64,000 nt of DNA from Oscillospiraceae bacterium (GCA_015064685.1 SVRT01000004.1:55883-119882), one strand, 5' to 3'. Shown: positions 1,068 through 31,412, numbered from the stretch's first letter. Notes: generated by a model not told the origin, from the sequence alone. Program-made: numbers and translations.

Positions 1068-1323
1068 TTTCAAATTTTGATTTATCGGGGAGGCGAACAA
1101 TCCCTCAGTCACGCGCAAGGCGTGACAGCTCCCTTTACACAAGGGAGCTTTGTTGGTGGATGTTCGTACGCATTATAGATGTGAAAACCCTTTAAAATTT
1201 AAAGGAAATTTCACTATATCCGCGTTCTCCACCTTTCAGGTAAAGCTCCCTTGTGTAAAGGGAGCTGGCGCGCCTCCGTGCGCGTCTGAGGGATTGTTCG
1301 CGTTCCCGCTAAACCCCAATTTA
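1068..1323 (-). repeat. type I nested palindromic intergenic element, copy 1 (centre subtype Ia)
   Basis: Termini TTTCAAATTTTGATTTATCGG ... TAAACCCCAATTT. Arms GGCGAACAATCCCTCAG / CTGAGGGATTGTTCG. Two AGCTCCCTT-TACAC-AAGGGAGCT hairpins. Variable modules GTCACGCGCAAGGCGTGAC (left) and GGCGCGCCTCCGTGCGCGTC (right). Confidence 0.9.
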
Positions 1324-1355
1324 TAAGCCTTTTCAGCACGAACACGGAGGTAATT

Positions 1356-3731
1356 ATGAGAAACATTTTAACGAACAACGAGATAATTTTCTGTCAGGAG
1401 ATAAGCGAGGACGTTACCGTCAAAGCCACGGGCGTCATCATCCAAAACTGCAAAATAAACGGTAACATCTACCTTGAAAACGCAACCAACTGCCTTGTGG
1501 CTCAGAACGAGATAAACGGCAATATCACCGCTAAGAACACATATAACTCGGTAATTCTTCTCAATAAGGCGCAAAATATCACCGCCGAGAGCAATACAAA
1601 TCTTTACGTAGTCGAAAACACCCTCTCGGGTACGCTCGTACTTAAAGATAATAACTACCTCTTAGCAGATGCAAATGCCTCCGGAGAAACAATATCCGAA
1701 AATAACGAAAACTTCAACGGTGACAATATCACCGCCGTCAATTCCCGTCTCCCCCACGGAGCTGACCTTGACTTGCTCCCGCACGCAAATAAGGAGCTCT
1801 TTGTCGGTATGCCGAGACGCGAATCTGTCAACGCCCACGATACCGACGGTAGCGAGAGCATCGAAAAATATATCATAAACCGCGCAAAAGGCGGCACTGT
1901 CATAGTTCCCCCCGGAGCGTACGAAGCTCCCGAGCCCGTAAGACTCAATGCAGATGCATCAGGCTCGACTATCTATGCCTTCGGCGCATTTATGGAGATG
2001 CTCCCCTACGGAAACGCCTTTGTCATAACCAACGGAAATAACATCACCGTCAAAGGACTCGTCATAGGCTACGCACAACAACCTTGCGGACAGGTAACGC
2101 TTATCGAGGAGATCGATAAATACACCTTCCTCGCTCTCCCCTACGCAGGCTCGATAGACGGATTTGGCAAGACCGACACAAAATTCTTCAGCGGCGGCTT
2201 TACCGACATTTTCGCCGAGGGCATGAACTACCCCTGGGGAACGCTTGGCGGAGCGTATGATATCGAAAAGCTCGAGAACGGACTCTATAAGATCAGGATA
2301 TGGGATAGCTATCCCTTCAAGGACGACATAAAGAAGGGCACAAGACTTGCAAACCGCCTCGTCGGACCCGATAAGATATCCATCCTTATGAATTACTCGA
2401 AAAATATTCTCTTCAAGGATATCTTCTTATACTGCCATTCCGCCTGCCTCGCTGCAGTAGCAGGAGGTGCGAGCGAGAATATCCACTTCTACCGCTGGTA
2501 CAACGGAAACGAGGCGGCTCGGATCATAGACAAGGCGACCTATGACCGCTACCGCGCGATAGAAGAAAAATACGGTGTCACAGGTGAGGTCTATATCGAC
2601 TCTCTCGGCAGATACCGCGGAGGCACTCCCCTCATCTGCTCCTCCGACGCGACTCACATCAACGGATGCCGCCGCGGAGTAGATGCCACCTCCTGCCTAT
2701 TTGAGTCAATGTGCGACGACGGATCGAACCAGCGCGCGTCAAGCTCGCGCCTTGCGGGAGTCACCGATAACGGCGACGGCACAACCACACTCTACTATAA
2801 GGGTAGCGTCTCGCAGATCTATTGCCTCAACTTCTTCAACGAAAATAACCCCCGCCCCACCCCAAGCAAGTGTCAACCCATATCGAAGGGCGACAGAGTG
2901 CTTATATATACGGGAACGGGAGTCACCTTCTGCGATACCGAAGCCCTCTCTGACGAGATCGCCGTGGAGGACTACGACTTTATCATCTCCCCCGAGGGCA
3001 AAACACCTCGCCACTACTACGACACGGTAAAGAAATTCACCGTCGCAACGAGCGCGCTCAATATGGCGGCGATAGAGGGCTTTGACCTCTCGGACAACCA
3101 CTACGATATGAAAAACAAGGTGCTTGTCGACAATCTCAGCCGCAACAGCGCAGGCTTCCATTTCGATAACGTGTTGGTCAGAAATACGCGCTCTCGCGGA
3201 ATTTTGGTCAAGACCGTAGGCGCGACTGTTGAACACTGTACCTTCCAAAATCTCGGACACACGGGAGTTCTCCTCTCGGTCGAGTTCGTCTGGGGCGAGA
3301 GCTCTGTCAGCCAGGATATCACGGTCAAAAAATGTCTTTTTGATAACGTGGGCTTTATAAATAAAGGTATCGCAAACAAGACCCTTGCCCCCGTAGCGAT
3401 CAAGGGACTTTCCTCCACAGTCGACGAAAAGTCGCTCCTCTACAAGAACATCCTCATCGAGGGCAATCGCTTTATAAACAATCAAAATAACTACGCCGTA
3501 ACGGTGAACTCCGCGCAGGACGTCCGTATCGTGAACAACGTCTTTGAGGAGTCTGTCGGAGAGTCCGAGGGATACTCGAGAATGGTCATCGACGTCGAGA
3601 CCTCTATGAATGTTGAGATCTCTGATAACAAATACTCCAAATATCTCGCCAATATTGAGGACGGCATCAGCGCGAAAAACTTTAAAAATATCCACGGCAC
3701 CGATATCACCCTCAACGACGACGTAGAATAA
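1356..3731 (+). CDS. parallel beta-helix repeat protein (probable glycoside hydrolase or polysaccharide lyase fold), paralog 2
   Basis: 791-aa ORF with a GGAGG RBS upstream of the ATG. N- and C-terminal blocks of NxxIxxN / IEGNRF beta-helix rungs. No signal peptide. Paralogous to 1-1058 and 6055-8595. Confidence 0.75.
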   Translation: MRNILTNNEIIFCQEISEDVTVKATGVIIQNCKINGNIYLENATNCLVAQNEINGNITAKNTYNSVILLNKAQNITAESNTNLYVVENTLSGTLVLKDNNYLLADANASGETISENNENFNGDNITAVNSRLPHGADLDLLPHANKELFVGMPRRESVNAHDTDGSESIEKYIINRAKGGTVIVPPGAYEAPEPVRLNADASGSTIYAFGAFMEMLPYGNAFVITNGNNITVKGLVIGYAQQPCGQVTLIEEIDKYTFLALPYAGSIDGFGKTDTKFFSGGFTDIFAEGMNYPWGTLGGAYDIEKLENGLYKIRIWDSYPFKDDIKKGTRLANRLVGPDKISILMNYSKNILFKDIFLYCHSACLAAVAGGASENIHFYRWYNGNEAARIIDKATYDRYRAIEEKYGVTGEVYIDSLGRYRGGTPLICSSDATHINGCRRGVDATSCLFESMCDDGSNQRASSSRLAGVTDNGDGTTTLYYKGSVSQIYCLNFFNENNPRPTPSKCQPISKGDRVLIYTGTGVTFCDTEALSDEIAVEDYDFIISPEGKTPRHYYDTVKKFTVATSALNMAAIEGFDLSDNHYDMKNKVLVDNLSRNSAGFHFDNVLVRNTRSRGILVKTVGATVEHCTFQNLGHTGVLLSVEFVWGESSVSQDITVKKCLFDNVGFINKGIANKTLAPVAIKGLSSTVDEKSLLYKNILIEGNRFINNQNNYAVTVNSAQDVRIVNNVFEESVGESEGYSRMVIDVETSMNVEISDNKYSKYLANIEDGISAKNFKNIHGTDITLNDDVE

Positions 3732-3740
3732 ACTCCTGCA

Positions 3741-3994
3741 TTTCAAATTTTGATTTATCGGGGAGACGAACAATCCCTCAGTCACGCGCAAGGCGTGACA
3801 GCTCCCTTTACACAAGGGAGCTTTGTTGGTGGATGTTCGTACGCATTATAGATGTGAAACCCTTTTAAATTTAAAGAAAATTTCACTATATCCACGTTCT
3901 CCACCTTTCAGGTAAAGCTCCCTTGTGTAAAGGGAGCTGGCGCGCCTCCGTGCGCGTCTGAGGGATTGTTCGCCTCCCCGCTAAACCGCAATTT
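3741..3994 (-). repeat. type I nested palindromic element, copy 2 (Ia)
   Basis: Near-identical to copy 1, including both variable modules. It follows an identical gene 3' end, consistent with a tandem segmental duplication. Confidence 0.9.
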
Positions 3995-4016
3995 TCAACA
4001 CAGAGAGAAATAAAAA

Positions 4017-6038: not shown

Positions 6039-6054
6039 GGGAAAGGATAACATT

Positions 6055-8595
6055 ATGACAACACAAGATTTTGAGAGATTGGTCGGCACTCCTCACGTCA
6101 GCGAGCCGATAGTACTTGAAAACGGTATATACGACGGACACGGCGGCGTCCTCCACGCCGACGGCGGTATCATAATCGACCGCGCAGGCTCTATCCTCCG
6201 CAACGTCACTATATACGGCAGCATCGCCGTAACGGGCAGAAACGCCGTTATCCAGAACTGTAAGATCAAGGCAGACACCTACGCGATCTTCGCCTCGGGA
6301 TGCGACGTGGTGATCAGAAACAACGAGATCGACGCGCCGAGCGCTATTATGATCGAGCCGGGCGCTCAAAACATCCTCATCGCGCAGAATAATACCCACG
6401 GAGACGTAAAAATAGACGGCGCGCTCAACTGCTCGGTCGTTCTTAATAAAGCTAACAAGATAAGCGTTGAGTCCTCCACGAGCGTCTACCTCTCGGCGAA
6501 CGATTTCGAGGGCAAGGCTACGCTGAAGAATAACGACTACCTCCTCTGCGACAACAACGCGGCAAGCGTGTTCGACGTATCTGGCAACAAAAATACCAAC
6601 GGTGACAATATAACCGACGTAAACGCGCGCGCAGAGTACGGCGCAAACGAGGATATCCTCCCCCACACCAACAAGAACCTCTTTGCAGGTATGCCAAGAA
6701 AAAAGACAGTCCTTGACGCAGACTACGACGAGATGCTCGACTTCACAGAGTACATCAAGAGAGAAGCGACCTCAAACCACATAGTCATCATTCCCCCCGG
6801 CGCATACGCGGTCGACCGCGAGATCTGGCTCGGCGCGGAATGCTCGAACTGCAAGATCTATGCCTACGGCGTATTTGCCGAGAAGACAGAGTATGCCGGC
6901 ACCTATACGGTAAGCGGTGTTGAAAACCTCGAGCTTCACGGTATCACCACGGGCTACGCTCAGCAGTCCTGCGGTCAGGTACACGTGCTTGACGTGATCG
7001 ACGATTGCACCTTCCTCGCAATCACCGCGGCGGGTATGCTCGACGATTTCGGCAAGAGCGATACCTCGCGCTTCCACGCGGGATTTGTCAATATCTTCAG
7101 GGCAGGTCATATAGAGCCCTACGGCAGCTTCGGCGGTAACTACGAGATCGAAAAGCTCGACGGTGGCGTTATGAAATTCACTATCCCCGAGAACCACGAC
7201 AAGGTCGGCAAGGTATATAAGGGAGATATCCTTACCTGCCGTATGGCGCTTCCCTTCCTCCGCTCCATCTACTTCGAGAACTGCAAGAACGTGCTTGTTA
7301 AGGACACCGTGCTGTACGGTTATTCCTCCGCGCTCGCTATAGTTATGTCGGGTGACTCTCAGAACGTGCGTATGGTAAGATGGCACGACACGGCGAAATT
7401 CTCTCCTGCGATCGAGGAGGCAACATATTCAAAATATAAGGCTCTTGAGGAAAAATACGGCGTTGATCTCGAGGTATACATCGACGACAGAGGCCGTTGG
7501 CGCGGCTCGACTCCGAGACTCAGCTCTATGGACTCATCTCACATCACAGGCTCGCGCGAGGGTCTGTCCTGTATCAGCTGCATTATGGAAAATATGTGCG
7601 ACGACGCAACCAACCAGCGAGCTTCAAGTGCGCGCCTGCACTCCCTCACCGACCTTGGCGACGGCAGGACCTCGCTGAAATACAAGCACTGCGCGACCGA
7701 GGTGTATTTCAACATCGACAGAAAGCCCACCGCGCGCGGCTCTCTCTGCCCTCCATTCAAGGCAGGCGACCATATTCTCGCCTACGCGTCGAGCGGTAGA
7801 ACGCTATGTAACACCCACACTCTCTCCGCTACCGAAAAGGTCGGCGAGCTTGAGTATACCATCACGGCTCCATCTCACTCAAAGGATTATACCGCGGATA
7901 TATTTGAGATCATAGTTCCCACGGCGGACGTTGATTTCTCTGTCATTGAGGGACTCGATCTCGAGGACAATCACTACCGACTTGACAACAAGGTATTTGT
8001 TGATAACCTTGACAGAAACAGCGCAGGCTACCTCTTCGACAACGTGCTTATGCAGAACGCGAGAGCGCGCGGCGCACTCGTCAAGACGGTCGACGCGACG
8101 GTTCGTAATTGCACCTTCAGAAATCTCCTCCACTCCGCGGTAATGTTCTCCGCAGAGCCATCCTGGGGAGAAAGCTCGGTGCCGCAAAACGTAGCTATCG
8201 AAAAGTGCCTCTTCGATCATACGGGTTATACCAACGAGGACTACGGCAACCGCCGCTATACGCCTATATCTGTCTACGGTCAGGGTACTCTGCTCGACAG
8301 AGACGCGCTTCTCTACCGTGACCTTTCTGTCCGTGAGTGCAAGTTCAAGAATATCTATACCGAGGTCTTCGTCTATATCAACGCAGCTCAGAAGGTCACT
8401 ATCGAGAATAATATCTTCGAGAGAAGCGAGAACAGCCCCTATAAGGATTCTCCCCTCATCCTCGACGTAACCCTCGCAGCAGACGTCACCTTCAAGGGTA
8501 ATACCTACCCCTGCGACGCAAAAGCCGAGGACAGAATCACAGGTCAGAGATACCAAAACGTCTCATTCGAGGGCGTATTACTCTCTAAGGATTAA
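6055..8595 (+). CDS. parallel beta-helix repeat protein, paralog 3
   Basis: The ATG at 6055 (MTTQDFERL) is preceded by AAGGGAAAGGA. The ORF-track start at 6013 would overlap the upstream gene. It aligns along its length with ORF 1356-3731 (GYAQQSCGQV, MCDDATNQRASSARL, NARARGALVKT). Confidence 0.75.
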   Translation: MTTQDFERLVGTPHVSEPIVLENGIYDGHGGVLHADGGIIIDRAGSILRNVTIYGSIAVTGRNAVIQNCKIKADTYAIFASGCDVVIRNNEIDAPSAIMIEPGAQNILIAQNNTHGDVKIDGALNCSVVLNKANKISVESSTSVYLSANDFEGKATLKNNDYLLCDNNAASVFDVSGNKNTNGDNITDVNARAEYGANEDILPHTNKNLFAGMPRKKTVLDADYDEMLDFTEYIKREATSNHIVIIPPGAYAVDREIWLGAECSNCKIYAYGVFAEKTEYAGTYTVSGVENLELHGITTGYAQQSCGQVHVLDVIDDCTFLAITAAGMLDDFGKSDTSRFHAGFVNIFRAGHIEPYGSFGGNYEIEKLDGGVMKFTIPENHDKVGKVYKGDILTCRMALPFLRSIYFENCKNVLVKDTVLYGYSSALAIVMSGDSQNVRMVRWHDTAKFSPAIEEATYSKYKALEEKYGVDLEVYIDDRGRWRGSTPRLSSMDSSHITGSREGLSCISCIMENMCDDATNQRASSARLHSLTDLGDGRTSLKYKHCATEVYFNIDRKPTARGSLCPPFKAGDHILAYASSGRTLCNTHTLSATEKVGELEYTITAPSHSKDYTADIFEIIVPTADVDFSVIEGLDLEDNHYRLDNKVFVDNLDRNSAGYLFDNVLMQNARARGALVKTVDATVRNCTFRNLLHSAVMFSAEPSWGESSVPQNVAIEKCLFDHTGYTNEDYGNRRYTPISVYGQGTLLDRDALLYRDLSVRECKFKNIYTEVFVYINAAQKVTIENNIFERSENSPYKDSPLILDVTLAADVTFKGNTYPCDAKAEDRITGQRYQNVSFEGVLLSKD

Positions 8596-8596
8596 T

Positions 8597-8849
8597 AAAT
8601 TGCGGTTTATGGGAGAGGCGAACAATCCCTCAGTCTCGCATTCGCTCGACAGCTCCCTTTACACAAGGGAGCTTTACCTCAAAGGTGAAAAACGAGGATG
8701 TAGTGACGTTTTTCCTTCAAATTAAAGGGTTTTTATGTCTACAAAGCGCACAAACATCCACCAATAAAGCTCCCTTGTGTAAAGGGAGCTGTCACGCCTT
8801 GTGCGTGACTGAGGGATTGTTCATCTCACCGATAAATCAAAATTTGAAA
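8597..8849 (+). repeat. type I nested palindromic element, copy 3 (centre intermediate between Ia and Ib)
   Basis: AAATTGCGGTTTATGGGAGAGGCGAACAATCCCTCAG ... CTGAGGGATTGTTCATCTCACCGATAAATCAAAATTTGAAA. Modules GTCTCGCATTCGCTCGAC (left) and GTCACGCCTTGTGCGTGAC (right). Confidence 0.9.
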
Positions 8850-8855
8850 GTGTAC

Positions 8856-9122
8856 AAATTGCGGTTTATCGGTGGGATAATAATTACAAACGCATTTAAA
8901 ATGTTTCACGGCTATAAGTCAAACGACACCAAATAACCGTAGGGACCGACGTCCTCGGCGGTCCGCTTCGATACGATTGTTTCTTTTCAGCCATAAGGGT
9001 TTTGTAGGCGTTTGCTTTGCGGACCGCCGAGGACGTCGGTCCCTACGGCGCAAAGCGTACCGTGGAGTAAATTTATAGCCGTGAAATTCAATTTAAACAG
9101 TTCGCTAAATCAAAATTATAAA
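8856..9122 (+). repeat. type III element: same termini, different interior
   Basis: AAATTGCGGTTTATCGG ... GCTAAATCAAAATTATAAA. The interior carries a perfect 30-bp inverted repeat, CCGTAGGGACCGACGTCCTCGGCGGTCCGC (8937-8966) / GCGGACCGCCGAGGACGTCGGTCCCTACGG (9019-9048), plus an outer IR TTTCACGGCTATAA / TTATAGCCGTGAAA. Confidence 0.85.
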
Positions 9123-9128
9123 GTGTAC

Positions 9129-9324
9129 AAATTGCGGTTTAGCGAACGGTCTACACTGTAGGGCGGGGGCTTGCTCCCGCCGTGAAAACCTTTTAAATTC
9201 AACGAAACGGCGGGAGCAAGCCCCCGCCCTACAGTGCGAAGCGTATTGAAAGTTTTTGCGGAGCTTTTTTCAAAAAGCGACACGCGTCCCCCGTCTCCCC
9301 GCACCGACAAATCAAAATTTGAAA
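9129..9324 (+). repeat. type IV element: same termini, another interior
   Basis: AAATTGCGGTTTAGCG ... CCGACAAATCAAAATTTGAAA. Perfect 28-bp IR CTGTAGGGCGGGGGCTTGCTCCCGCCGT (9156-9183) / its reverse complement (9207-9234). The right part contains GAAAGTTTTTG + GCTTTTTTCAAAAAGC, the motif also found upstream of the GRE and activase genes. Confidence 0.85.
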
Positions 9325-9351
9325 AACCACACCTGCGGGTGTGGTTTTTTT
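9325..9351. terminator. bidirectional intrinsic terminator
   Basis: AAAAA-CCACACC-TGC-GGGTGTGG-TTTTTTT. There is an A-tract on one side and a T-tract on the other. It lies immediately downstream of the minus-strand AraC gene stop at 9350. Confidence 0.8.
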
Positions 9352-10270: not shown

Positions 10271-10286
10271 ATGCTCATAGATCGAT

Positions 10287-10539
10287 AAATTGGGGTTTAT
10301 GGGAGAGGCGAACAATCCCTCAGTCTCGCATTCGCTCGACAGCTCCCTTTACACAAGGGAGCTTTACCTGAAAGGTGGAGAACGTGGATATAGTGAAATT
10401 TTCTTTAAATTTAAAAGGTTTTCACACCTATAATGCGTACGAACATCCACCAACAAAGCTCCCTTGTGTAAAGGGAGCTGTCACGCCTTGTGCGTGACTG
10501 AGGGATTGTTCGAACTCACCGATAAATCAAAATTTGAAA
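10287..10539 (+). repeat. type I nested palindromic element, copy 6 (Ia)
   Basis: AAATTGGGGTTTATGGGAGAGGCGAACAATCCCTCAG ... CTGAGGGATTGTTCGAACTCACCGATAAATCAAAATTTGAAA. It ends 18 nt before the GH2 ATG. Confidence 0.9.
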
Positions 10540-12866: not shown

Positions 12867-13120
12867 TTTCAAATTTTGATTTGGCGGTGTGTTCGAACAA
12901 TCCCTCAGTCTCGCATTCGCTCGACAGCTTCCTTTACACAAGGGAGCTTCACCTAAAAGGTTGAGAACGAGGCTGCAGTGAGTTTCACTTTATCCGTAAA
13001 GGATTTCACGGCTACAAAGCGCACAAACGTCCACCAACAAAGCTCCCTTGTGTAAAGGGAGCTGGCGCGCCTCCGTGCGCGTCTGAGGGATTGTTCGCGT
13101 CCCCTATAAACCGCAATTTA
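12867..13120 (-). repeat. type I nested palindromic element, copy 7 (Ib; interior inverted relative to termini compared with copies 1 and 2)
   Basis: TTTCAAATTTTGATTTGGCGG ... TATAAACCGCAATTT. The centre reads TCACCTAAAAGGTTGAG...CCACCAACAA, opposite to copy 1, which has the same terminus orientation. Confidence 0.9.
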
Positions 13121-15236: not shown

Positions 15237-15244
15237 TTCTATAC

Positions 15245-21957: not shown

Positions 21958-22202
21958 TTAATTGCAATTTAACGAGGAGACAATCCCTCAGTCGCCTATG
22001 GCGACAGCTCCCTTTACACAAGGGAGCTTTGTTGGTGGACGTTTGTGCGCTTTGTAGCCGTGAAATCATTTACGGATAAAGTGAAACTCACTACAGCCTC
22101 GTTCTCAACCTTTGAGGTGAAGCTCCCTTGTGTAAAGGGAGCTGTCGAGCGAATGCGAGACTGAGGGATTGTTCGAACGCCCCGACAAATCAAAATTTAA
22201 AG
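21958..22202 (+). repeat. type I nested palindromic element, copy 8 (Ib, degenerate left terminus)
   Basis: TAATTGCAATTTAACGAGGAGACAATCCCTCAG, module GTCGCCTATGGCGAC, hairpin AGCTCCCTTTACACAAGGGAGCT, centre TTGTTGGTGGACG..., right module GTCGAGCGAATGCGAGAC, then ...GACAAATCAAAATTTAAA. Confidence 0.85.
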
Positions 22203-22208
22203 GTCAGA

Positions 22209-22628
22209 TTATTTTGCCGCTTCGCCAAGCGAGCGGGCAACGGCGGCTTCGAAGAATTCGCGCCAATGCTGATCCTCGGCGCTCTCCGCTTTAGATATAG
22301 AGTAGCTTGGATTAGTTTTATTTTGTTTAGATATAGCCCAAGCCCCCCTTGAAGCCCCCTTGGTGGCACCCGATTGATCTTCGGTCTGATTTTTCTTGAT
22401 GCTCGCGCCAATAGAACCGTACGCGCTGTACTCGAGCCGACGGTCGATGCAAGGGAAGATCATCGTTGCGACGGGTTTGGCTTTTCCCTTGAATTCCATA
22501 GGCTTTTCGCCATATATCTGATACCTGTATACCGCCCAAAGTATCCTCTTAAAATCGCTTGCGCTGAGGTCTTGCATAGCCTCAAACCATTCGTTGTAGA
22601 TGAGAACGCCCTTATGTACTTGTCCCAT
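22209..22628 (-). CDS. small hypothetical protein, DUF6291-like (phage/mobile-element associated family)
   Basis: 139 aa. LIYNEWFEAMQDLSASDFKRILWAVYRYQIYGEKPMEFKGKAKPVATMIFPCIDRRLEY resembles the DUF6291 N-terminal pattern as I recall it. It is an isolated gene bracketed by two repeat elements. Confidence 0.4.
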   Translation of the reverse strand: MGQVHKGVLIYNEWFEAMQDLSASDFKRILWAVYRYQIYGEKPMEFKGKAKPVATMIFPCIDRRLEYSAYGSIGASIKKNQTEDQSGATKGASRGAWAISKQNKTNPSYSISKAESAEDQHWREFFEAAVARSLGEAAK

Positions 22629-22834
22629 TTTTTACTCCTTTTTTAAAAAAAATTATATGAATTTTTTGTGACCACGAGGTAATTCGAGTGCAATTTGATT
22701 GCAACCCGAGGTCAATTGCGATCAGTTCCGCAACAACATTATAGCACATTTGTTCTGTTTTGTCGGCTCCAAAATGGAAAAAATTTTTTTTCATCCTCGA
22801 AATGGGGAAAAAATTTGTAATCTTTCAAGTATAT

Positions 22835-23092
22835 AAATTGGGGTTTTACGAATAGCCTTCTCCAGCGGAGAAGGGGGACCACCGAAGGTGGTGGATGAGG
22901 AGGTCGCCATTAGGATGTATTTCACGGGAGCGGTGTGGATTTTGTCTTTTCGCGCAAAGATTCTTATGCATCGGAACAAGGTCTTTACACGGACGCGAAG
23001 CCCACAAAAGGGCGACCTCCTCATCCACCGCTAACGCGGTCCCCCTTCCCCGCTGGGGAAGGCTAAAGGCACCGATAAATCAAAATTTGAAA
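22835..23092 (+). repeat. type II element: same termini, interior built from CCTTCYCC/GGRGAAGG and GGTGGATGAGGAGGTCGCC modules
   Basis: AAATTGGGGTTTTACGAA ... CACCGATAAATCAAAATTTGAAA. Arms carry sub-hairpins CCTTCTCCAGCGGAGAAGG, ACCACCGAAGGTGGT / ACCGCTAACGCGGT and CCTTCCCCGCTGGGGAAGG. Confidence 0.9.
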
Positions 23093-23125
23093 CAAAAAAA
23101 GGGCTGACGGTGTCAGCCCTTTTGG
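23093..23125 (-). terminator. intrinsic terminator of the vWA operon
   Basis: GGGCTGAC-GGT-GTCAGCCC with a T-run on the minus strand (complement of AAAAAAA at 23094-23100). The same stem sequence recurs at 27861-27881. Confidence 0.8.
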
Positions 23126-23132
23126 GTGTAGA

Positions 23133-24953: not shown

Positions 24954-24981
24954 AACAAAACCATCCTTTCGAAATTTAATT

Positions 24982-25620: not shown

Positions 25621-26168
25621 AACAAGCCCTCCTCCTCAAGTAATTTTCTGAGATCAAGTCTCATTCTGTGCAGCGCGGTCTTTACGCGTGACTCGCCCGA
25701 GCCTACCTTTAAGGCGACCTCCTCGATCGACTTCGAATAGAAATAGCGCAGAATAAACATCGCTCTCTTCTCTCTGTCGCAGGAATAAAGGAATTTGTTG
25801 ATTATCTCCTTTATCCGCTCGCTGTCGCTCCCAAGCCACTCCTCCTCGACGTCGGGTATACATTCGGTAAGCTCCGCGCAGAGATTGTCTATTCCTCCGC
25901 GCCGCTCCGTGTGTCTTCGGCGGAAGCAGTCTATCGAGATTCGTCTCACTATCTTGGACAGAAACGCTCCGAGATAGTCGGGTCTGGCTGTCGGCATCGA
26001 GTTCCAGGCATCTATGTACGTGTCGTTGACACATTCCTCCGCATCCTCCCTTGAGGAAAGCAAGGAATATGACAATGAGCTTAACATCCTGCCGTACTTT
26101 TTGTCCGACTCGCTTATCGCCGCCTCGTCGCGCGCCCAATAGAGATCAACTATTTTCGAGTCTTCCAT
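25617..26168 (-). CDS. ECF-type sigma-70 family RNA polymerase sigma factor
   Basis: 183 aa with region 2 (DAEECVNDTYIDAW) and region 4 (SIEEVALKVGSGESRVKTALHRMRLDLRKLL) patterns. Confidence 0.85.
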   Translation of the reverse strand: MEDSKIVDLYWARDEAAISESDKKYGRMLSSLSYSLLSSREDAEECVNDTYIDAWNSMPTARPDYLGAFLSKIVRRISIDCFRRRHTERRGGIDNLCAELTECIPDVEEEWLGSDSERIKEIINKFLYSCDREKRAMFILRYFYSKSIEEVALKVGSGESRVKTALHRMRLDLRKLLEEEGLL

Positions 26169-26318
26169 GGCGGTCTCCTTTTCTTTTTTTCGGGCTTCAA
26201 CCTATATGTCGCAAAAAAATGTGGATGGTTACATTTTTTTGCTATTTTTTTCAAATTTTTTTCTAAGCCTTCACCCGTTGACTTTATCTTACCATATTAT
26301 TTATATTGTGTCAATGAT

Positions 26319-26571
26319 AAATTGCGGTTTATGTGGGAGGCGAACAATCCCTCAGTCTCGCATTCGCTCGACAGCTCCCTTTACACAAGGGAGCTTTACC
26401 TGAAAGGTGGGGAACGTGGATATAGTGAAGTTTTCTTTAAATTTAAAAGGGTTTCACATCTATGATGCGTACGAACATCCACCAACAAAGCTCCCTTGTG
26501 TAAAGGGAGCTGTCACGCCTTGTGCGTGACTGAGGGATTGTTCGAACTCACCGCCAAATCAAAATTTGAAA
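26319..26571 (+). repeat. type I nested palindromic element, copy 9 (Ia)
   Basis: AAATTGCGGTTTATGTGGGAGGCGAACAATCCCTCAG ... CTGAGGGATTGTTCGAACTCACCGCCAAATCAAAATTTGAAA. Same module set as copies 3 and 6. Confidence 0.9.
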
Positions 26572-26601
26572 ATGACTTTTTTTGATGTTCATAAATTGCA
26601 A

Positions 26602-26630
26602 TTGAAAAATCCCCCGGGGAGTGATATACT
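26602..26630 (+). promoter_or_regulatory. sigma-A type promoter for the hydrolase gene
   Basis: TTGAAA, 17 nt, TATACT (26625-26630). Confidence 0.5.
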
Positions 26631-26667
26631 TACACTAAGCTCACGGCAGACACGCGGAGGTGAAAAT

Positions 26668-27567
26668 ATGGATCAATTAAAGCAAAAATGGCTTGACGCG
26701 CTCGGCAAGCCTTCATATACAAAGACCTACGGCAAGGCTACGCTCGTCTCTTCCTTCTCGACCGACGAATTCGACGCCGAATGGTACCGTCAGGAAAACG
26801 GAGATGGCAAAACGCAGCGCGTGCTGATGCTTCTTCCCAAGCACCTCGAGGAAAACTCGCCCGCAATCGTTATTCCCTTCTATTTTCCCGAGGCTCTGCT
26901 TGCCTTTGATCACGCAACCGGCGAGGAGCTCGAATATTACAAGGGGCTTGAAATGATGCTCCACCTCGTTCGCCGCGGATACGTGGTCATTTCCGCGGAC
27001 GCTTATCATTTGAATTATATCGACAGCGACAAGGATCGCAGAGACTTTACTCGCTGGCAGGACGCTGCGAATTCGCTCCGCGCCGACCATCCCTATTACA
27101 GCGGTATGGGTAAGCTTGTTGATGACACAAGGCTTTTGATCGATCTGCTCGACTCGGATGGTCGAGTTGACAGCTCACGCATCGGCATTGCGGGACACTC
27201 GCTCGGGGGTAAGATGGCATTCTACACGGGCTGCCTGGACGAGCGGATCAAGGTAATTGTCGCAAGTGATTTCGGCATTGGATGGCATCAGACGAATTGG
27301 AAGGACGATTGGTATTGGGGCAAGGATGCAAAGAGGCTCGAGGAGGCTGGATTTGACCATTCCGAGCTGCTCACGATCGCCCAAAAGCCATTCTGTCTCA
27401 TCGCAGGCCTCTATGACACCGACGAGAGCCTCGAGATCGCACTCCGCGCCGACGGATACGAAAACGACGGCGAAAAGCTCAAGTTCATTAACCACGCTAC
27501 GGGTCACCGCCCCCCTATGTGGACGCTCGACCAAGGGTATGATTTCCTTGATAAGTGGTTGAAATAA
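26668..27567 (+). CDS. alpha/beta hydrolase (dienelactone hydrolase / esterase-like)
   Basis: ATG at 26668 with a GGAGGTG RBS; the track start lies in the repeat. Nucleophile elbow GIAGHSLGGKMA and a C-terminal HATGH. Confidence 0.65.
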   Translation: MDQLKQKWLDALGKPSYTKTYGKATLVSSFSTDEFDAEWYRQENGDGKTQRVLMLLPKHLEENSPAIVIPFYFPEALLAFDHATGEELEYYKGLEMMLHLVRRGYVVISADAYHLNYIDSDKDRRDFTRWQDAANSLRADHPYYSGMGKLVDDTRLLIDLLDSDGRVDSSRIGIAGHSLGGKMAFYTGCLDERIKVIVASDFGIGWHQTNWKDDWYWGKDAKRLEEAGFDHSELLTIAQKPFCLIAGLYDTDESLEIALRADGYENDGEKLKFINHATGHRPPMWTLDQGYDFLDKWLK

Positions 27568-27572
27568 AAAAT

Positions 27573-27602
27573 AAGGAAGAGATGAAAGTCTCTTCCTTTT
27601 TT
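27573..27602 (+). terminator. intrinsic terminator
   Basis: GGAAGAGA-TGAAAG-TCTCTTCC followed by TTTTTT. Confidence 0.8.
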
Positions 27603-27606
27603 GATG

Positions 27607-27858
27607 AATTGCGGTTTATCGTGGAGGCGAACAATCCCTCAGACGCGCACGGAGGCGCGCCAGCTCCCTTTACACAAGGGAGCTTTGTTGGTGGACGTTT
27701 GTGCGCTTTGTAGCCGTGAAACCCTTTACGGATAAAGTGAAACTCACTGCAGCCTCGTTCTCAACCTTTTAGGTGAAGCTCCCTTGTGTAAAGGGAGCTG
27801 TCGAGCGAATGCGAGACTGAGGGATTGTTCGAACTCACCGATAAATCAAAATTTGAAA
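27607..27858 (+). repeat. type I nested palindromic element, copy 10 (Ib)
   Basis: AATTGCGGTTTATCGTGGAGGCGAACAATCCCTCAG, module GACGCGCACGGAGGCGCGCC, centre TTGTTGGTGGACG..., right module GTCGAGCGAATGCGAGAC, then ...CCGATAAATCAAAATTTGAAA. Confidence 0.9.
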
Positions 27859-27890
27859 AAGGGGCTGACGGTGTCAGCCCCTTTGGGTTT
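27856..27890 (-). terminator. intrinsic terminator of metG
   Basis: GGGGCTGAC-GGT-GTCAGCCCC with a T-run on the minus strand. It is a near-copy of the terminator at 23093-23125. Confidence 0.8.
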
Positions 27891-27895
27891 AATAA

Positions 27896-29878
27896 TTATC
27901 TTACTCTTTCACCGAGAGGTGTATCCTCTGCGAGGAATACGACGCGTACGGTCTCCTCGCCCGATGCGAGGATCATTCCGTTCGACTCGATTCCGCAGAG
28001 CGTTGCGGGCTTAAGGTTAGCCACGACGATGATCTTCTTTCCGATGAGATCCTCGGGCTGATACCACTTTGCGATACCGGAAACTACCTGTCTTTCCTCG
28101 TATCCGAGGTCGATCTTGAGCTTGAGGAGCTTCTTTGCCTTCGGCACCTTCTCGCACTCGATTATCTTCGCGGTACGAAGCTCAACGCCCATAAAGTCCT
28201 CGATGCCTATAAGCGCGCATCCCTCGGGCTTTTCAGGCTTCTCCTCTGCCTTTGCCGCAGCCTCAGCCGCCGCCTTCTTCGCCGCCATCTCTGCTTCAAG
28301 CTCAGAGAGCATCTTTGCCTCGTCGATACGCGCGAACATAACGCGAGAATCGCCTACGACACTTCCTGCCTCGATCTTACCGAAGCACTTTACGCATCCG
28401 ACCGTCGTGTAGTCGGTCTTATCAGTACCGATGGTTGCGAGTATCTCCTCTGCCGTTGCGGGAATGAAGGGCTTGAGCAGCACAGCACCCCAACGGATCG
28501 CCTCAAGGAGGTTATAGAGGACGGTGCCGAGTCTCTCTCTCTGCGCTTCGTCCTTCGCGAGCGTCCAGGGAGTAGTCTCGTCTATATACTTATTCGCTCT
28601 TGAGAGCATCTCGAATACACACTCGAGCGCGTCGGCGATTCTGAACGCATCCATATTCTTGACAACGCCATCGTAAGCCTTTGCGCAAGCCGCCTTAAGC
28701 TCCTCGTCGAGAGCTTCGGGAGCTGTGGGCGCCTGAACGACCTTATCAAAATACTTCTTCTGCATATCAAGCGTACGCTTAACGAGGTTTCCGAGGTTAT
28801 TTACAAGGTCGGTGTTATATCTCTTGATAACCGTCTCGTATGTGATGCTACCGTCGGATGCGAAGGGCATCTCGGAGAGCGCGTAGTATCTTACGCCGTC
28901 GATTCCGAAGCGGTCCGCTAGCTCGTCGGCATAGATCACGTTGCCGCGCGACTTGGACATCTTATCCGCGCCGAAGTTAAACCAGGGATGACCGAATATC
29001 TGCTTAGGAAGCGGAATATCGAGAGCCATCAAGAAGATAGGCCAATAGATAGTGTGGAAGCGGAGGATGTCCTTACCGATAACGTGGACGTCCGCAGGCC
29101 AATATTTCTTGAACTTCTCGCTCTGCTCCTCAAACGACTTATCGGGGTCGTAACCGATAGCCGTGATGTAGTTGGTGAGCGCGTCGAGCCATACGTAGGT
29201 TACGTGACGGGGATCGAAGTCAACGGGGATACCCCACGAGAAGGAGGTACGCGAAACACAGAGGTCCTGGAGTCCGCCCTCGACCTTGAGGAAGTTGTTG
29301 ACCATCTCCTTCTTTCTCGACTCGGGCTGAATGAACTCGGGATTTGCTTCGATGTGAGCCATAAGTCTGTCGGCGTACTTGCTCATCTTGAAGAAGTAAG
29401 CCTCCTCCTCAGCCTTCGCGACGGGTCTGCCGCAGTCGGGACACTTGCCGCCCTCTGCCTGAGTCTCTGTGAAGAAGGACTCGCAGGGGGTACAGTACCA
29501 GCCCTCGTACTTTCCTTTATATATATCGCCCTGCTCGTAGAATTTCTTGAATATCTTCTGAACTACCGCCTCGTGATAATCGTCGGTCGTGCGGATAAAG
29601 TGATCGTAATTTACGTTCATCTTGTCCCAAAGCTCACGGATCTCGCCCGCTACGCCGTCAACGTATGCCTTAGGCGTGATACCTGCCGCCTTTGCAAGCT
29701 CCTCGATCTTCTGTCCGTGCTCGTCGGTACCCGTACACATAAATACGTCGTATCCCATCTCTCTCTTATAGCGAGCCATAGCGTCTGTTGCTATTGCCTC
29801 GTAGGTGTTTCCGAAGTGGGGCTTTTTCGACGCGTACGCGATAGCCGTTGTGATGTAATACTTCTGTTTGTCTGCCAT
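27896..29878 (-). CDS. metG: methionine--tRNA ligase with C-terminal tRNA-binding (Trbp111/EMAP-like) domain
   Basis: YITTAIAYASKKPHFGNTYE (HIGH-type motif), KMSKSRGN, a CxxC zinc knuckle (CTPC...CPDC) and a C-terminal GIEDFMGVELRTAKI OB-fold. Confidence 0.95.
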   Translation of the reverse strand: MADKQKYYITTAIAYASKKPHFGNTYEAIATDAMARYKREMGYDVFMCTGTDEHGQKIEELAKAAGITPKAYVDGVAGEIRELWDKMNVNYDHFIRTTDDYHEAVVQKIFKKFYEQGDIYKGKYEGWYCTPCESFFTETQAEGGKCPDCGRPVAKAEEEAYFFKMSKYADRLMAHIEANPEFIQPESRKKEMVNNFLKVEGGLQDLCVSRTSFSWGIPVDFDPRHVTYVWLDALTNYITAIGYDPDKSFEEQSEKFKKYWPADVHVIGKDILRFHTIYWPIFLMALDIPLPKQIFGHPWFNFGADKMSKSRGNVIYADELADRFGIDGVRYYALSEMPFASDGSITYETVIKRYNTDLVNNLGNLVKRTLDMQKKYFDKVVQAPTAPEALDEELKAACAKAYDGVVKNMDAFRIADALECVFEMLSRANKYIDETTPWTLAKDEAQRERLGTVLYNLLEAIRWGAVLLKPFIPATAEEILATIGTDKTDYTTVGCVKCFGKIEAGSVVGDSRVMFARIDEAKMLSELEAEMAAKKAAAEAAAKAEEKPEKPEGCALIGIEDFMGVELRTAKIIECEKVPKAKKLLKLKIDLGYEERQVVSGIAKWYQPEDLIGKKIIVVANLKPATLCGIESNGMILASGEETVRVVFLAEDTPLGERVR

Positions 29879-29920
29879 TTTTCTTTACCTTACACTCTGC
29901 GAATGGGCAGAGTGCCTTTC

Positions 29921-31066
29921 TTATATTTTCTTGCCTTGGAAGATGACTTCCTTGACATTATATTCTTCATCAAGTATGAGCATATTCGCTCTCTTGCCCG
30001 TATCGATCGAGCCGAGAGTGCCGTACGCTCCGATCATTTTTGCCGGGGATGCCGTCGCGCAATAGAGCGCCTCGGAAAAGGGTATCTCCGCAAAAGCCGA
30101 AAGATTCTTCACTCCGTCAATAAGACCTAACGTGCTACCCGCGATCGCGCCCTCGTGCGTTCTTGCGCGTCCGTCCCTGACCGTGACGGGGAGACCCGCA
30201 ATGAAGTATTCTCCGTCGGGCATTCCCGTTGCCTCCATCGAGTCTGTGATGAGGACAATTTTTTCCTTTTTTAATTTATATGCCATTCTGACCGCCTCGG
30301 GAGAGACGTGAAATCCGTCGCATATCAGCTCGCAGAAAACTCCGTCGGTGAGAAGCCCCGCGCCGACCGATCCGCCGTCTCTGTGGTGGAAGGGCGACAT
30401 AGCGTTATAGGTGTGAGTGAGGGATATAGCTCCGCGCTCAAAGGCTCTCTGCCCCTCGGCAAAGGTCGCGTCGGAATGTGCAAGACCGAGCGTAGCTCCA
30501 CCCTCAAGTGCTGCGGTGGTAAAGTCTCCGCTCTCGTCAAGCTCGAGCGCCGCGCTGACGTGCGCGAAACCCGTTTTCTTCATCTCCTTTACAAGAGCCG
30601 AGATCTCGCTCGCATCGGGCTTTGCTAGAAGGCTTGCCGCGTGCGCGCCCCTTCTCTTTTCATTGAGATATCTACCCTCAAGGTGTACTCCGATAAACGC
30701 GCTCTCGCCGCTCTTCAGCTCTGCCACTCTTTCTATCGAGGTATACAGATCATCAAGCGTCGCAGACGCTAACGTTGCCATAACAGAGGTGACTCCGCTA
30801 TTTACGTAAGACTCCGACATCCTTTTTAGCACTTCAACGTCAGCGGTGTTGAAGTCTCCGCCCGCGCGACCGTGGGTGTGAACGTCGATGAGTCCGGGAA
30901 TCAGATAATTGCCATCAAGGTCAATGATGTTCTCAAATTCGCCCGAAGGAGTTGCGTCTGTGAAATATACGCCGTCAATAATACCGTCCGCTACCGTGAC
31001 CGCGCCCGACATAAAGCATTTCTGCTCACTTACGTATATTTTGCCGTTTTTATAAAGTACACTCAT
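29921..31066 (-). CDS. nagA: N-acetylglucosamine-6-phosphate deacetylase
   Basis: IDVHTHGRAGGDF metal-binding motif, AHSDAT and TDSME motifs. ATG at 31066 with a GGAGGTG RBS; the track start is a TTG five codons upstream. Confidence 0.85.
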   Translation of the reverse strand: MSVLYKNGKIYVSEQKCFMSGAVTVADGIIDGVYFTDATPSGEFENIIDLDGNYLIPGLIDVHTHGRAGGDFNTADVEVLKRMSESYVNSGVTSVMATLASATLDDLYTSIERVAELKSGESAFIGVHLEGRYLNEKRRGAHAASLLAKPDASEISALVKEMKKTGFAHVSAALELDESGDFTTAALEGGATLGLAHSDATFAEGQRAFERGAISLTHTYNAMSPFHHRDGGSVGAGLLTDGVFCELICDGFHVSPEAVRMAYKLKKEKIVLITDSMEATGMPDGEYFIAGLPVTVRDGRARTHEGAIAGSTLGLIDGVKNLSAFAEIPFSEALYCATASPAKMIGAYGTLGSIDTGKRANMLILDEEYNVKEVIFQGKKI

Positions 31067-31160
31067 CTCTCTCACCTCCAAAATAGCACATATATATGTA
31101 TTATATCAAATAATTGGTAATTTTACAAGAGATTTATAAAATATTGTTCCATAATTCGAT

Positions 31161-31412
31161 AAATTGGGGTTTATGGGAGAGGCGAACAATCCCTCAGACG
31201 CGCACGGAGGCGCGCCAGCTCCCTTTACACAAGGGAGCTTTACCTGAATGGTGGAGAACGCGGATATAGTGAAGTTTTCTTTAAATTTAAAAGGTTTTCA
31301 CATCTATAAAGCGTACGAACATCCACCAACAAGCTCCCTTGTGTAAAGGGAGCTGTCGAGCGAATGCGAGACTGAGGGATTGTTCGAACTCACTGACAAA
31401 TCAAAATTTGAA
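31161..31412 (+). repeat. type I nested palindromic element, copy 11 (Ia centre with a different module pair)
   Basis: AAATTGGGGTTTATGGGAGAGGCGAACAATCCCTCAG, module GACGCGCACGGAGGCGCGCC, centre TTACCTGAATGG..., right module GTCGAGCGAATGCGAGAC, then ...TGACAAATCAAAATTTGAA. Confidence 0.9.

Follow-up and report, generated by a model that had tools for sequence, protein, structure and literature searches.

The window analysed here, 64,000 nucleotides in full, comes from a gut or rumen Oscillospiraceae-like host (gut Clostridia) and carries nine intergenic copies of a hairpin-forming repeat of about 250 bp, which we call Type I. All nine had been located by a first-pass annotation of the sequence, and all are present. 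Each is built in three layers: an outer terminal frame, an inverted pair of arms and a centre. The frame consists of imperfect terminal inverted repeats (AAATTGSGGTTTATCG ... CGATAAATCAAAATTT), with 13 of 16 positions matching between AAATTGCGGTTTATCG and the reverse complement of CGATAAATCAAAATTT. Within the frame, a conserved arm unit of 55-60 bp occurs twice, in inverted orientation, and comprises ACAATCCCTCAG, one variable hairpin (the module) and a flanking hairpin, AGCTCCCTTTACACAAGGGAGCT. This 23-bp hairpin is perfect or near-perfect and occurs 18 times, against 0 occurrences expected by chance. The centre, of 92-94 bp, is a weak palindrome in its own right. The inverted pair of palindromic units and its spacer are predicted to fold as one long hairpin in both orientations of the centre, as computed for c6 (-130.7 kcal/mol, z -14.3) and c10 (-128.5 kcal/mol, z -11.0). 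The curated covariance models of Rfam gave no match at the elements, the sole gathering-level match in the window being Gut-1, which lies elsewhere; matches of long-hairpin miRNA models at the elements were far below threshold and were rejected as spurious.

The copies and the related elements of the window are as follows, with modules given as left / right and every copy oriented from AAATTG to TTTGAAA.

1068..1322, minus strand: Type I copy c1, modules B / C, centre Ia.
3741..3994, minus strand: Type I copy c2, modules B / C, centre Ia (same state in L134).
8594..8849, plus strand: Type I copy c3, modules A / C, centre Ic (same state in L135-L138).
8853..9122, plus strand: Type II element, Type I termini, interior of long inverted repeats headed GTAGGG.
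9126..9324, plus strand: Type III element, Type I termini, interior a GTAGGGCGGGGGCTTGCTCCCGCC inverted repeat.
10284..10539, plus strand: Type I copy c6, modules A / C, centre Ia (same state in L136).
12867..13120, minus strand: Type I copy c7, modules B / A', centre Ib (inverted), centre proper 12949-13040.
21958..22202, plus strand: Type I copy c8, modules D / A', centre Ib (inverted), centre proper 22029-22120, left terminus degenerate (same state in L120).
22832..23092, plus strand: Type IV element, Type I termini.
26316..26571, plus strand: Type I copy c9, modules A / C, centre Ia (same state in L128 and L130-L132).
27603..27858, plus strand: Type I copy c10, modules B / A', centre Ib (inverted), centre proper 27685-27776.
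31158..31413, plus strand: Type I copy c11, modules B / A', centre Ia.
47846..47899, plus strand: minimal element, two termini and a remnant of one Type I arm (GGGATTGTTCGTCTCCCC).
49118..49388, plus strand: second Type IV element.

Termini of the AAATTG/TTTGAAA type are thus common to element Types I-IV. Type II has a submodule, TTTCACGGCTAYAA, in common with the Ib centre. The arms of Type IV parallel the Type I design, with a GCCTTCTCC..GGAGAAGG hairpin, a variable hairpin and GGATGAGGAGG. We read the minimal element as a collapsed Type I palindrome.

The left module of Type I is B (GACGCGCACGGAGGCGCGCC) in c1, c2, c7, c10 and c11, A (GTCTCGCATTCGCTCGAC) in c3, c6 and c9, and D (GTCGCCTATGGCGAC) in c8, while the right module is C (GTCACGCCTTGYGCGTGAC) in c1, c2, c3, c6 and c9 and A' (GTCGAGCGAATGCGAGAC) in c7, c8, c10 and c11. 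These are the five module sequences previously noted, each recovered on one or the other strand, and the "at least four" combinations announced for them are the four pairings B/C, A/C, B/A' and D/A', which become five states when the orientation of the centre is added. Left module A is the exact reverse complement of right module A'. Since the same module therefore stands on the left in some copies and, exactly reverse-complemented, on the right in others, recombination between copies is forced. The nine copies of the window pass every pairwise four-gamete test, so that the argument for exchange comes from module A and from one orthologue comparison.

That comparison concerns the copy at the c11 locus of L153 (98% MetRS identity), whose other flank is non-syntenic. 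This copy keeps the c11 centre, including its specific markers (CGCTTTATAG and a one-base deletion at GGGAGC-TTGTTGG), but both of its modules differ, A' and B being replaced by module C and an A-like module. It also carries a nested, hairpin-rich insertion of about 76 nt within the stem of a flanking hairpin. The claim that Type I copies are mosaics made by reshuffling hereby gains direct support.

The centres of c7, c8 and c10 had been described as reversed relative to the termini, and we found that they are diverged reverse complements of the other six. Ia and Ib centres are identical at 0.74-0.77 of positions when one is reverse-complemented and at 0.53-0.58 in the forward direction, with shuffled controls at 0.52 +/- 0.04 (maximum 0.62); the alignment scores are +44 and -10, respectively. 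The first-pass annotation had itself named the circumstance under which no inversion would have occurred, namely that the palindromic centre aligns equally well both ways. The whole element is indeed an imperfect palindrome, and Ia centres match their own reverse complements at 0.58-0.69, slightly above shuffles. However, over all centres this self-match is weak (0.50-0.69; score +8 for Ia and -9 for Ib), the two centre ends, TTACCTGAAAGG and CCACCAACAA, are plainly unlike each other, and the reversed identity lies far above both the forward identity and the shuffles. An artefact of palindromy is therefore next to inconceivable.

The asymmetry of the outer arms (GGCGAAC on the left, TTCGAAC on the right) is identical in both centre orientations, which places the ends of the inverted segment inside the arms. 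In six of the nine copies, module A adjoins the same centre end (TTACCT in Ia and Ic, TCACCT in Ib), so the inverted unit could be module A together with the hairpin and the centre. Orientation had been said to track centre subtype. The centre of c3, which had been counted as Ia, belongs to a third lineage, Ic: it is about equidistant from Ia (0.77-0.81) and inverted Ib (0.76-0.77) and, though in the Ia orientation, has CTACAAAGCGCACAAAC and AACGAGG in common with Ib. Ia and Ib centres are about 24% diverged, with 1-8% between copies within a subtype; the three Ib centres are 96-99% alike.

Whether the centre still flips can be judged from orthologous loci. In JGI and ENA samples, all 21 full-length orthologous copies (seen at c2, c3, c6, c7, c8, c9, c10 and c11) have the orientation and modules of the window, a count of assembly consensus in which a minority orientation within a population would be invisible. 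At c7, the Ib orientation was found in 8/8 contigs with full or partial coverage. Many contigs break inside Type I repeats, and, being 99.2-100% identical to the window over the aligned parts, these assemblies sample little evolutionary time. Related species reach further back: the c11 site is empty in L149-L151 (91-94% MetRS identity) and the c8 site in L149 (94%), from which it follows that the present insertions are much younger than the split between Ia and Ib.

These data bear on the idea of an active inverton, in which a site-specific recombinase would reversibly flip the centre between its inverted arms and thereby alter the expression of neighbouring genes. As in known invertons (fimS, Bacteroides and the class found by PhaseFinder), a segment of roughly 100 bp lies between inverted repeats, here perfect ones of 23 bp (60-80 bp with the arms), and both orientations occur in one genome. 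Orientation could matter, since a terminator-like signal (a hairpin followed by TTGTTGGTGG) is present, weakly, on one side only. Known invertons differ from Type I, however, in that each Type I locus has one orientation, with 0/21 orthologous copies departing from it, and deep divergence separates the two states. Pfam annotation of essentially all genes in the 64 kb, about 6 kb upstream and about 10 kb downstream showed no invertase, integrase or transposase, and the centres scanned contain no promoter-like site. Moreover, centre orientation has no consistent relation to the direction of the flanking genes. We therefore consider an inverton highly improbable. The unflipped orthologues, the divergence of the centres, the youth of the insertions and the absence of a recombinase from this DNA all agree with the first-pass preference for a fixed, old event over ongoing switching, while its remark that the arms are what an invertase would use draws its support from their geometry. 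The reversed centre records an ancient rearrangement of repeat DNA that has since become fixed; it does not work as a genetic switch.

At the level of loci, orientation and modules are fixed, and the c11 locus of L153 shows that modules can be exchanged for others around a retained centre. Whole elements are gained and lost between close relatives. The empty sites at c11 and c8 amount to insertion polymorphism of the kind expected of a MITE. At the site downstream of MetRS, the termini are kept in species of 91-95% MetRS identity whose interiors differ, so that AAATTG/TTTGAAA termini stay at orthologous sites while the interior type changes. Near-identical strains have alternative junctions exactly at elements (L120, L122/L127 and L135/L137), and in two cases a gained gene is bracketed by elements, in the order element-gene-element. 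The nine Type I copies lack copy-specific direct repeats at their flanks; in the empty c11 site, AAATTTTGA is already present at the position where the right terminus starts, which fits a preferred target and a poor duplication of 8-9 bp equally. With ten loci seen, the sample is too small for reconstructing the order of events.

The reading that we find somewhat probable is that Type I elements are non-coding, non-autonomous nested imperfect palindromes that vary by copy-to-copy exchange and underwent one ancient flip. Copies would diversify through gene conversion or short-patch recombination with one another, probably starting from two conserved connectors, CCCTCAG and the 23-bp hairpin. 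Because these connectors are self-complementary and the arms mutually inverted, a donor copy can pair with a recipient in direct or inverted register. In the inverted case, exchange would place a left module on the right side in reverse-complemented form, the pattern that module A shows, and would also flip the centre. This flip, or an equivalent intramolecular recombination between arms, may have occurred once, long ago, after which each orientation would have spread as a separate subfamily. Any function would be a by-product: transcripts would contain a predicted hairpin of about -130 kcal/mol, and the copies would offer portable homology able to drive gene gain, loss and rearrangement.

A single ancient intramolecular inversion in a master copy, followed by amplification of Ib and with the module differences unrelated to it, is rather unlikely in our estimate. 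Homologous recombination, or template switching during replication, between an element's own inverted 23-bp hairpins or longer arms would produce it. The arms of c11 are those of c7 and c10 (modules B / A'), these copies differing only in the orientation and sequence of the centre, as a simple inversion would have it; breakpoints inside the flanking hairpins would be scarless, as the hairpins are perfect inverted repeats, and the three Ib centres are closely alike. Yet the constant position of module A beside one centre end and its transfer from left to right arms are left unexplained, and further exchange or homogenisation is needed because the c11 centre is 24% from Ib while the modules are identical.

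A third account takes the interior, or the centre alone, as a separate small palindromic element that would have entered an already existing terminal frame, one way round in some master copies and the other way in others. In the window, the same termini surround at least four unrelated interiors; this, the differing interiors at one orthologous site among related species and the extra hairpin insert of L153 all speak for it, and REP dimers within "target palindromes" are known from other bacteria (PMC3733652). Against it, a solo centre was never found in the window or in 119 loci of other genomes, neither insertion scars nor duplications flank the centre, and the whole interior did not flip, because the arm asymmetry outside the modules is unchanged. 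We judge such nested insertion improbable.

Flips without a dedicated recombinase have precedents. In small hairpin-associated inversions of chloroplast non-coding DNA, and in template switching at quasipalindromes, the loop or spacer between inverted repeats is fixed by lineage in either orientation. There, the states are found at orthologous loci between species, whereas those of Type I are paralogous copies in one genome; a flip of the chloroplast kind is seen one level down in other genomes, where the loop of the 23-bp hairpin reads TACACA or TGTGTA. BIMEs of E. coli and BOX elements of S. pneumoniae are mosaics of a few interchangeable palindromic and linker modules, with alternating orientation and locus-specific combinations. 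Type I resembles them as a mosaic of swappable modules, although sequences and hosts are unrelated; in BIMEs, orientation alternates by whole unit, and a reversed central spacer in a fixed frame is not known as one of their features. MITEs with subtype mosaics, such as the Correia elements of Neisseria, measure 100-300 bp, lack an ORF, end in terminal inverted repeats, lie between genes or are co-transcribed, vary in presence between relatives and form subtypes that are combinations of end variants. Type I has terminal inverted repeats in the same way, but a target-site duplication and a cognate transposase were not found in the DNA examined (no autonomous transposase-encoding element with Type I ends occurs in the window, flanks or related loci), and at a given site its termini persist while the entire interior is exchanged.

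A close structural parallel is with REP dimers or REPINs of Pseudomonas, E. coli and others, which are inverted palindromic pairs with a 20-100-bp spacer that form one long hairpin, are intergenic and numerous, and occur as head-head and tail-tail dimers and as heterodimers differing in stem or loop (PMC3116915, PMC3733652); some are nested in longer "target palindromes" (PMC3733652). Type I shares the inverted palindromic pair, the spacer and the one-hairpin fold and, in these terms, is a tail-to-tail heterodimer with a structured spacer in a palindromic frame. Its arm, in contrast, starts with ACAATCCCTCAG and has no GTAG or CGTC tag (GTAGGG heads are present in Types II and III of the same window), and its two-hairpin unit is of about 55 nt. 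No RAYT or Y1 transposase was found in the window or flanks. Altogether, we class Type I as a REPIN/BIME/MITE-like family of nested palindromes with copy-to-copy recombination as its shaping force.

Whereas the partner of REP is RAYT, a Y1 transposase, the Type I arm unit in other genomes brackets small genes of DUF559 (PD-(D/E)XK) endonucleases. The unit is widespread in gut Clostridia as ACAATCCCTCAG, a variable hairpin and AGCTCCCTTTACACAAGGGAGC. Among 120 arm units from other MAGs we counted 85 different variable hairpins, all of which fold (MFE -8.4 versus -2.0 kcal/mol for shuffles), predominantly with GNA/TNC triloops. The DUF559-bracketing hairpin cassette is a provisional class defined in this analysis. 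Its 5'-type arm consists of GCCTCCC..GGGAGGT, a hairpin and GGAGGGATTGT, its 3'-type arm of ACAATCCCTCAG, a hairpin and GCTCCC..GGGAGC, and the two face outward, enclosing the DUF559 gene or about 22 nt of spacer. Type I instead has two 3'-type arms facing inward with a 93-nt centre between them, and neither the window nor the related loci contain a DUF559 gene. The cassette ends are matched by the arms of Type I, not by its termini. Since the arm unit is the same sequence but differently arranged, Type I is a derivative of the cassette rather than a member. The Type IV element at 22832..23092 has a stretch of 24 nt identical to the 5' arm of a DUF559 cassette in L096.

It is a tentative and on the whole doubtful proposal that gut Clostridia harbour a class of small selfish cassettes, as yet undescribed, whose terminal hairpin module is represented by the arms of Type I and, in a second lineage, of Type IV. 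In such a cassette, an endonuclease of about 120 aa (DUF559, Vsr-like PD-(D/E)XK) would be exactly bracketed by two structured inverted arms, the 5' arm providing the Shine-Dalgarno sequence GGAGG and the 3' arm a hairpin together with the stop codon. Its non-autonomous progeny, by analogy with REPtron and REPIN, would be pairs of arms without a gene, spaced by about 22 nt, and palindromised derivatives, among them Type I; the nuclease would act on the hairpins. If this is true, hairpin-directed cleavage and repair would yield the hypervariable GNA/GNRA-looped stem, the flips of loops and centres, and the swapping of interiors inside fixed termini.

The nine Type I copies in the window (c1, c2, c3, and c6 through c11) consist of outer termini, two inverted arm units, and a centre. 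Read from the AAATTG terminus to the TTTGAAA terminus, the parts of the element are as follows.

Ends of the element: AAATTGSGGTTTA / TAAATCAAAATTTGAAA
Left half: terminus (G)ATAAATTGSGGTTTA, about 10 variable bases, GAACAATCCCTCAG, a 14- to 20-nt hairpin (the module), AGCTCCCTTTACACAAGGGAGCT
Middle: a centre of 92 to 94 nt
Right half: AGCTCCCTTGTGTAAAGGGAGCT, the second module, CTGAGGGATTGTTCG, about 10 bases, TAAATCAAAATTTGAAA

Each of the two forms of the element folds into one long hairpin (−130.7 kcal/mol with z = −14, and −128.5 kcal/mol with z = −11), and a 23-nt hairpin occurs 18 times at ≤1 mismatch, against 0 expected. An Rfam search of the elements returned no family, whether judged by gathering threshold or by E-value. 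The five module sequences listed in the first-pass annotation were matched exactly, on one strand or the other, and its count of at least four module combinations was borne out: written as left/right, these are B/C (c1, c2), A/C (c3, c6, c9), B/A' (c7, c10, c11), and D/A' (c8). No copy carries the same module on both arms, which is not significant (P about 0.24); selection against long, perfect palindromes might explain why such copies are missing.

In c3, c6, and c9, module A occupies the left arm; A', which occupies the right arm in c7, c8, c10, and c11, is its exact reverse complement, and therefore transfer between arms is required. In addition, arms and centre must have separate histories, since identical modules in the pairs c3/c6 and c10/c11 accompany centres that are 76–78% alike (for c10/c11, after reverse complementation). 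The strongest evidence for the proposed reshuffling of modules comes from L153, a 98% relative in which the c11 locus is orthologous on the amidohydrolase side. In its centre, the element there retains the markers specific to c11 (CGCTTTATAG and the loss of one base at GGGAGC-TTGTTGG), and it carries module C and an A-like module, vs A' and B in the window. An additional insertion, rich in hairpins and about 76 nt long, interrupts the stem of its 23-nt hairpin.

The inversion of the centre described in the first-pass annotation is also confirmed. Centres of c7, c8, and c10 (subtype Ib) reach an identity of 0.74–0.77 with those of c1, c2, c6, c9, and c11 (subtype Ia) after reverse complementation, whereas forward alignment of Ia and Ib gives 0.53–0.58, the level of shuffled sequences (0.52 ± 0.04, maximum 0.62); global alignment scores are +44 reversed and −10 forward. 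An artefact of palindromy in the centre, named at the outset as the alternative, does not account for this result, since each centre matches its own reverse complement weakly (0.50–0.69; scores of +8 for Ia and −9 for Ib). The centre of c3 represents a third lineage, Ic, equidistant from Ia and inverted Ib; it lies in the Ia orientation, yet has CTACAAAGCGCACAAAC and AACGAGG in common with Ib. The outer arms differ from each other in the same way (GGCGAAC left, TTCGAAC right) whichever way the centre lies, so the flipped segment ends within the arms. In six of the nine copies, module A adjoins one particular centre end (TTACCT in Ia/Ic, TCACCT in Ib), so the flipped unit may be A plus hairpin plus centre.

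We infer that exchange between copies would be seeded at the conserved connectors, CCCTCAG and the 23-bp hairpin. Because these are self-complementary, donor and recipient could pair in either register, and exchange in the inverted register would move a module to the other arm and reverse the centre. Alternatively, recombination within one element, between its two arms, with amplification afterwards, would explain the flip equally well, but leaves the position of module A unexplained. Nested insertion would account for the swapping of interiors, although no solo centre was found in 119 loci of other genomes, among the matches listed. One nesting level down, TACACA is flipped to TGTGTA in 3 of 120 3'-type arms and 2 of 57 5'-type arms among the matches listed (e.g., L111), which fits a recombinase-free, hairpin-associated process. 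Flips of this kind are known from quasipalindromes and chloroplast spacers.

Whether the centre still switches was addressed with orthologous loci from other public assemblies, which were found via exact matches to three window proteins and match the window at 99.2–100% identity where they align. Samples with this strain include ENA ERZ27248370, ERZ27248351, and ERZ27248436 and JGI 3300024272, 3300024270, and 3300023371. They cover c2, c3, and c6 through c11 one to eight times each. All 21 full-length orthologous copies in these consensus assemblies have the modules and centre orientation of the window, in line with the earlier preference against ongoing switching, and partial copies agree as far as they are covered. 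A 22nd copy, which occupies a locus that the window lacks (L134, 6794–6986), is D/Ib/A', as is c8; ten loci were seen in all, each in consensus assemblies. Centre-specific patterns gave no match in metagenome contigs, and genes for a recombinase, transposase, or integrase are absent from the window and from about 6 kb upstream and about 10 kb downstream of it. In both respects, centre orientation at single loci and a nearby recombinase, Type I fails the tests that define an inverton, and a candidate phase-variation switch is now out of consideration. On one side of the centre, a hairpin followed by TTGTTGGTGG is weakly terminator-like. The idea of a directional terminator was rejected, as the direction of this hairpin and TTGTTGGTGG has no constant relation to neighbouring genes across copies.

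Centres diverge by 1–8% within one orientation and by about 24% between orientations, and insertions at individual loci are polymorphic. The c11 site is empty in L149 through L151, from species at 91–94% MetRS identity (alignment A1), holds a small single-hairpin element in L152, and holds Type I in L153 and the window. Copies c9 and c10 are missing in a 98% relative, and L149 (a 94% relative) has 60 nt (15212–15272) where window 21958–23092 has a Type IV element, a DUF6291 gene, and c8. Since the orientations are about 24% diverged while the insertions at these loci are young, the Ia/Ib split is older than the visible copies; that is, the present insertions are young relative to the split, and each orientation spread as its own subfamily. 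No convincing case of target-site duplication was found. A search of GH35 homologues for orthologues of the c7 site gave one close relative, on a 1.8-kb contig.

Unrelated interiors also occur inside the same termini in the window.

8853–9122: Type II, long inverted repeats headed by GTAGGG
9126–9324: Type III, long inverted repeats headed by GTAGGG
Type IV: arms of parallel design to those of Type I
47846–47899: minimal element of 54 nt, both termini and GGGATTGTTCGTCTCCCC, a remnant of one Type I arm

The minimal element looks like a Type I palindrome with its interior deleted; analogous single-hairpin elements of the Type IV kind are present in L149 and L152. Types II and III stand in tandem with c3, with the same GTGTAC linker at the joins, and resemble GTAG-tagged REP dimers. 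Directly after the MetRS terminator, four related genomes share the same right element terminus with entirely different interiors: the window (27560–27920, 26160–26680) has Type I copy c10, a DLH-family gene, and a second Type I copy, c9; L149 (11983–12160) has a 75-nt element with one hairpin; and L150 and L151 have other interiors downstream of MetRS. L152, too, has another interior there. In addition, contigs that match the window at ≥99.9% identity where aligned turn to other genes exactly at elements.

At c7: L122 (before 4070) and L127
At c8: L120 (from 9335)
At the right end of Type II: L135/L137 (from about 5260), two samples

These strain-level junctions are either rearrangements at repeats or assembly chimeras. 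Two recent gene gains relative to L149, the DLH-family hydrolase and the DUF6291 gene, have the form element-gene-element in direct orientation, which would be the expected trace of integration by recombination at a resident element. Integron-like cassettes, in which genes are bracketed by arms of successive copies, were considered and rejected, as element orientations are inconsistent.

Other genomes were scanned for the hairpin 21-mer of the arm unit, the matches listed excluding the window's own species. Among these matches, more than 119 stretches of MAGs from gut and rumen Clostridia contain the 21-mer, nearly always with ACAATCCCTCAG and a short hairpin ahead of it. The 120 arm units listed hold 85 different hairpins, all of which fold (mean MFE of −8.4 vs −2.0 kcal/mol for shuffles; 6.3 pairs on average); consequently, the modules of the first-pass annotation correspond to the variable stem of a conserved unit. 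Most loops are TNC on the strand read, and GNA and GNRA loops occur in the mirror-type arm. The usual outward arrangement elsewhere is GCCTCCCTTGTGTAAAGGGAGGT, hairpin, GGAGGGATTGT, spacer, ACAATCCCTCAG, hairpin, GCTCCCTTTACACAAGGGAGC. Both Type I arms are of one kind (...GACTGAGGG, GGGAGCTGTC), whereas other genomes pair two systematically different kinds. Because inward pairs of same-kind arms, the Type I design, were absent from the 119 stretches listed, Type I looks like a palindromised form derived from the 3' arm and specific to this lineage.

Spacer length among the matches listed is bimodal: of the 34 spacers of ≤40 nt, most measure about 22 nt, and eight other spacers measure 344–347 nt. 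A DUF559 gene (PF04480, E = 4.7e-29) makes up the long spacer; it encodes an endonuclease of about 120 aa and is bracketed exactly by the two arms.

DUF559 cassettes: L096, L097, L048, L066, L018, L105, L104, L103, L111; in part, L054 and L009

The 5' arm ends in GGAGGGATTGT, whose GGAGG lies at Shine-Dalgarno distance from the DUF559 start codon, and the stop codon lies inside the hairpin of the 3' arm (ACAATCCCTCAG-hairpin). Judged from sequence, the cassettes and the gene-less pairs with spacers of about 22 nt look like autonomous and non-autonomous forms. L096 contains a second DUF559 cassette, whose variant arms have 24 bases identical to the Type IV arms of the window; neither the window nor 34 related loci hold a DUF559 gene or remnant. 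A possible similarity of the left terminus to the 3' coding end of the L096 gene is unshared by other DUF559 genes and was treated as chance. In L104, L096, L111, and L028, the cassettes lie between copies of an approximately 45-nt direct repeat (TTTGCATCTAAACCTTATGCCTCGCAAT...ATGTCGAA), which suggests tandem arrays or a specific insertion site. The DUF559 papers found contain nothing on flanking repeats, and neither the DUF559 link nor the change of interiors in a fixed frame was found in the literature searched. Full-text matches to the motif sequences were chance matches only, and a literature search for MITEs in Oscillospiraceae and relatives gave microbiome surveys only.

The mosaicism of Type I resembles that of BIME, BOX, and Correia subtypes. 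Type I has no GTAG/CGTC tag of the REPIN kind; in the DNA examined, it shows no convincing duplication of the classical MITE kind, and neither a MITE transposase nor a known RAYT was found. In REP vocabulary, it would be called a tail-to-tail heterodimer whose spacer is structured and which lies nested within a palindromic frame (PMC3733652, PMC3116915).

The window itself comes from the chromosome of a member of the Clostridia from gut or rumen, and its gene content is ordinary; the closest relatives of its MetRS and beta-galactosidase carry the names Ruminococcaceae or Oscillospiraceae bacterium. Genes in the window and its flanks include GH2 and GH35 glycoside hydrolases, beta-helix proteins, an AraC regulator, PFK, ABC exporters, MetRS, a microcompartment/fuculose-type cluster, and a glycyl-radical enzyme; no tRNA gene was found in the window. 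All nine Type I copies lie in window 1–31415, around the glycoside-hydrolase genes (a polysaccharide-utilisation region), and the next 43 kb or so (31416–64000 plus L139 to +10 kb) contain no Type I copy. The beta-helix proteins are paralogues with a repeated N-terminal stretch, MCDDG...NQRA.SS.RL (41–174, 2690–2823, 7594–7637), and L134 has another set of such paralogues upstream. The sole Rfam match in the window, remote from the Type I elements, is a Gut-1 RNA (RF01706, 79 bits; 37272–37347) inside the microcompartment gene cluster. It directly follows the first copy of a 295-nt direct repeat (36958–37252 / 37878–38172, 89%), and no further Gut-1 follows the second. At the window end (63756–64000) lies an 88-nt direct repeat (97%, spacing 157), at which two small ORFs are present or absent between strains (L139, 14531–15236, vs L140, 14421–14812).

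Altogether, Type I shows how a repeat family diversifies, with interchangeable hairpins, a centre readable either way, and interiors replaced within fixed termini. As stated, this finding is of modest interest; the parts worth following are the DUF559 link, a side result that could be more valuable, and the interiors that change in a fixed frame. For the genome dynamics of the lineage, the elements stand at rearrangement junctions, flank two gene gains, and crowd a polysaccharide-utilisation region; they also break metagenome assemblies. Finally, the side result opens a first genomic approach to DUF559, a domain that is very common but has no assigned role, and to a hairpin motif strewn through the intergenic DNA of uncultured gut Clostridia, where it is a source of spurious ORFs.
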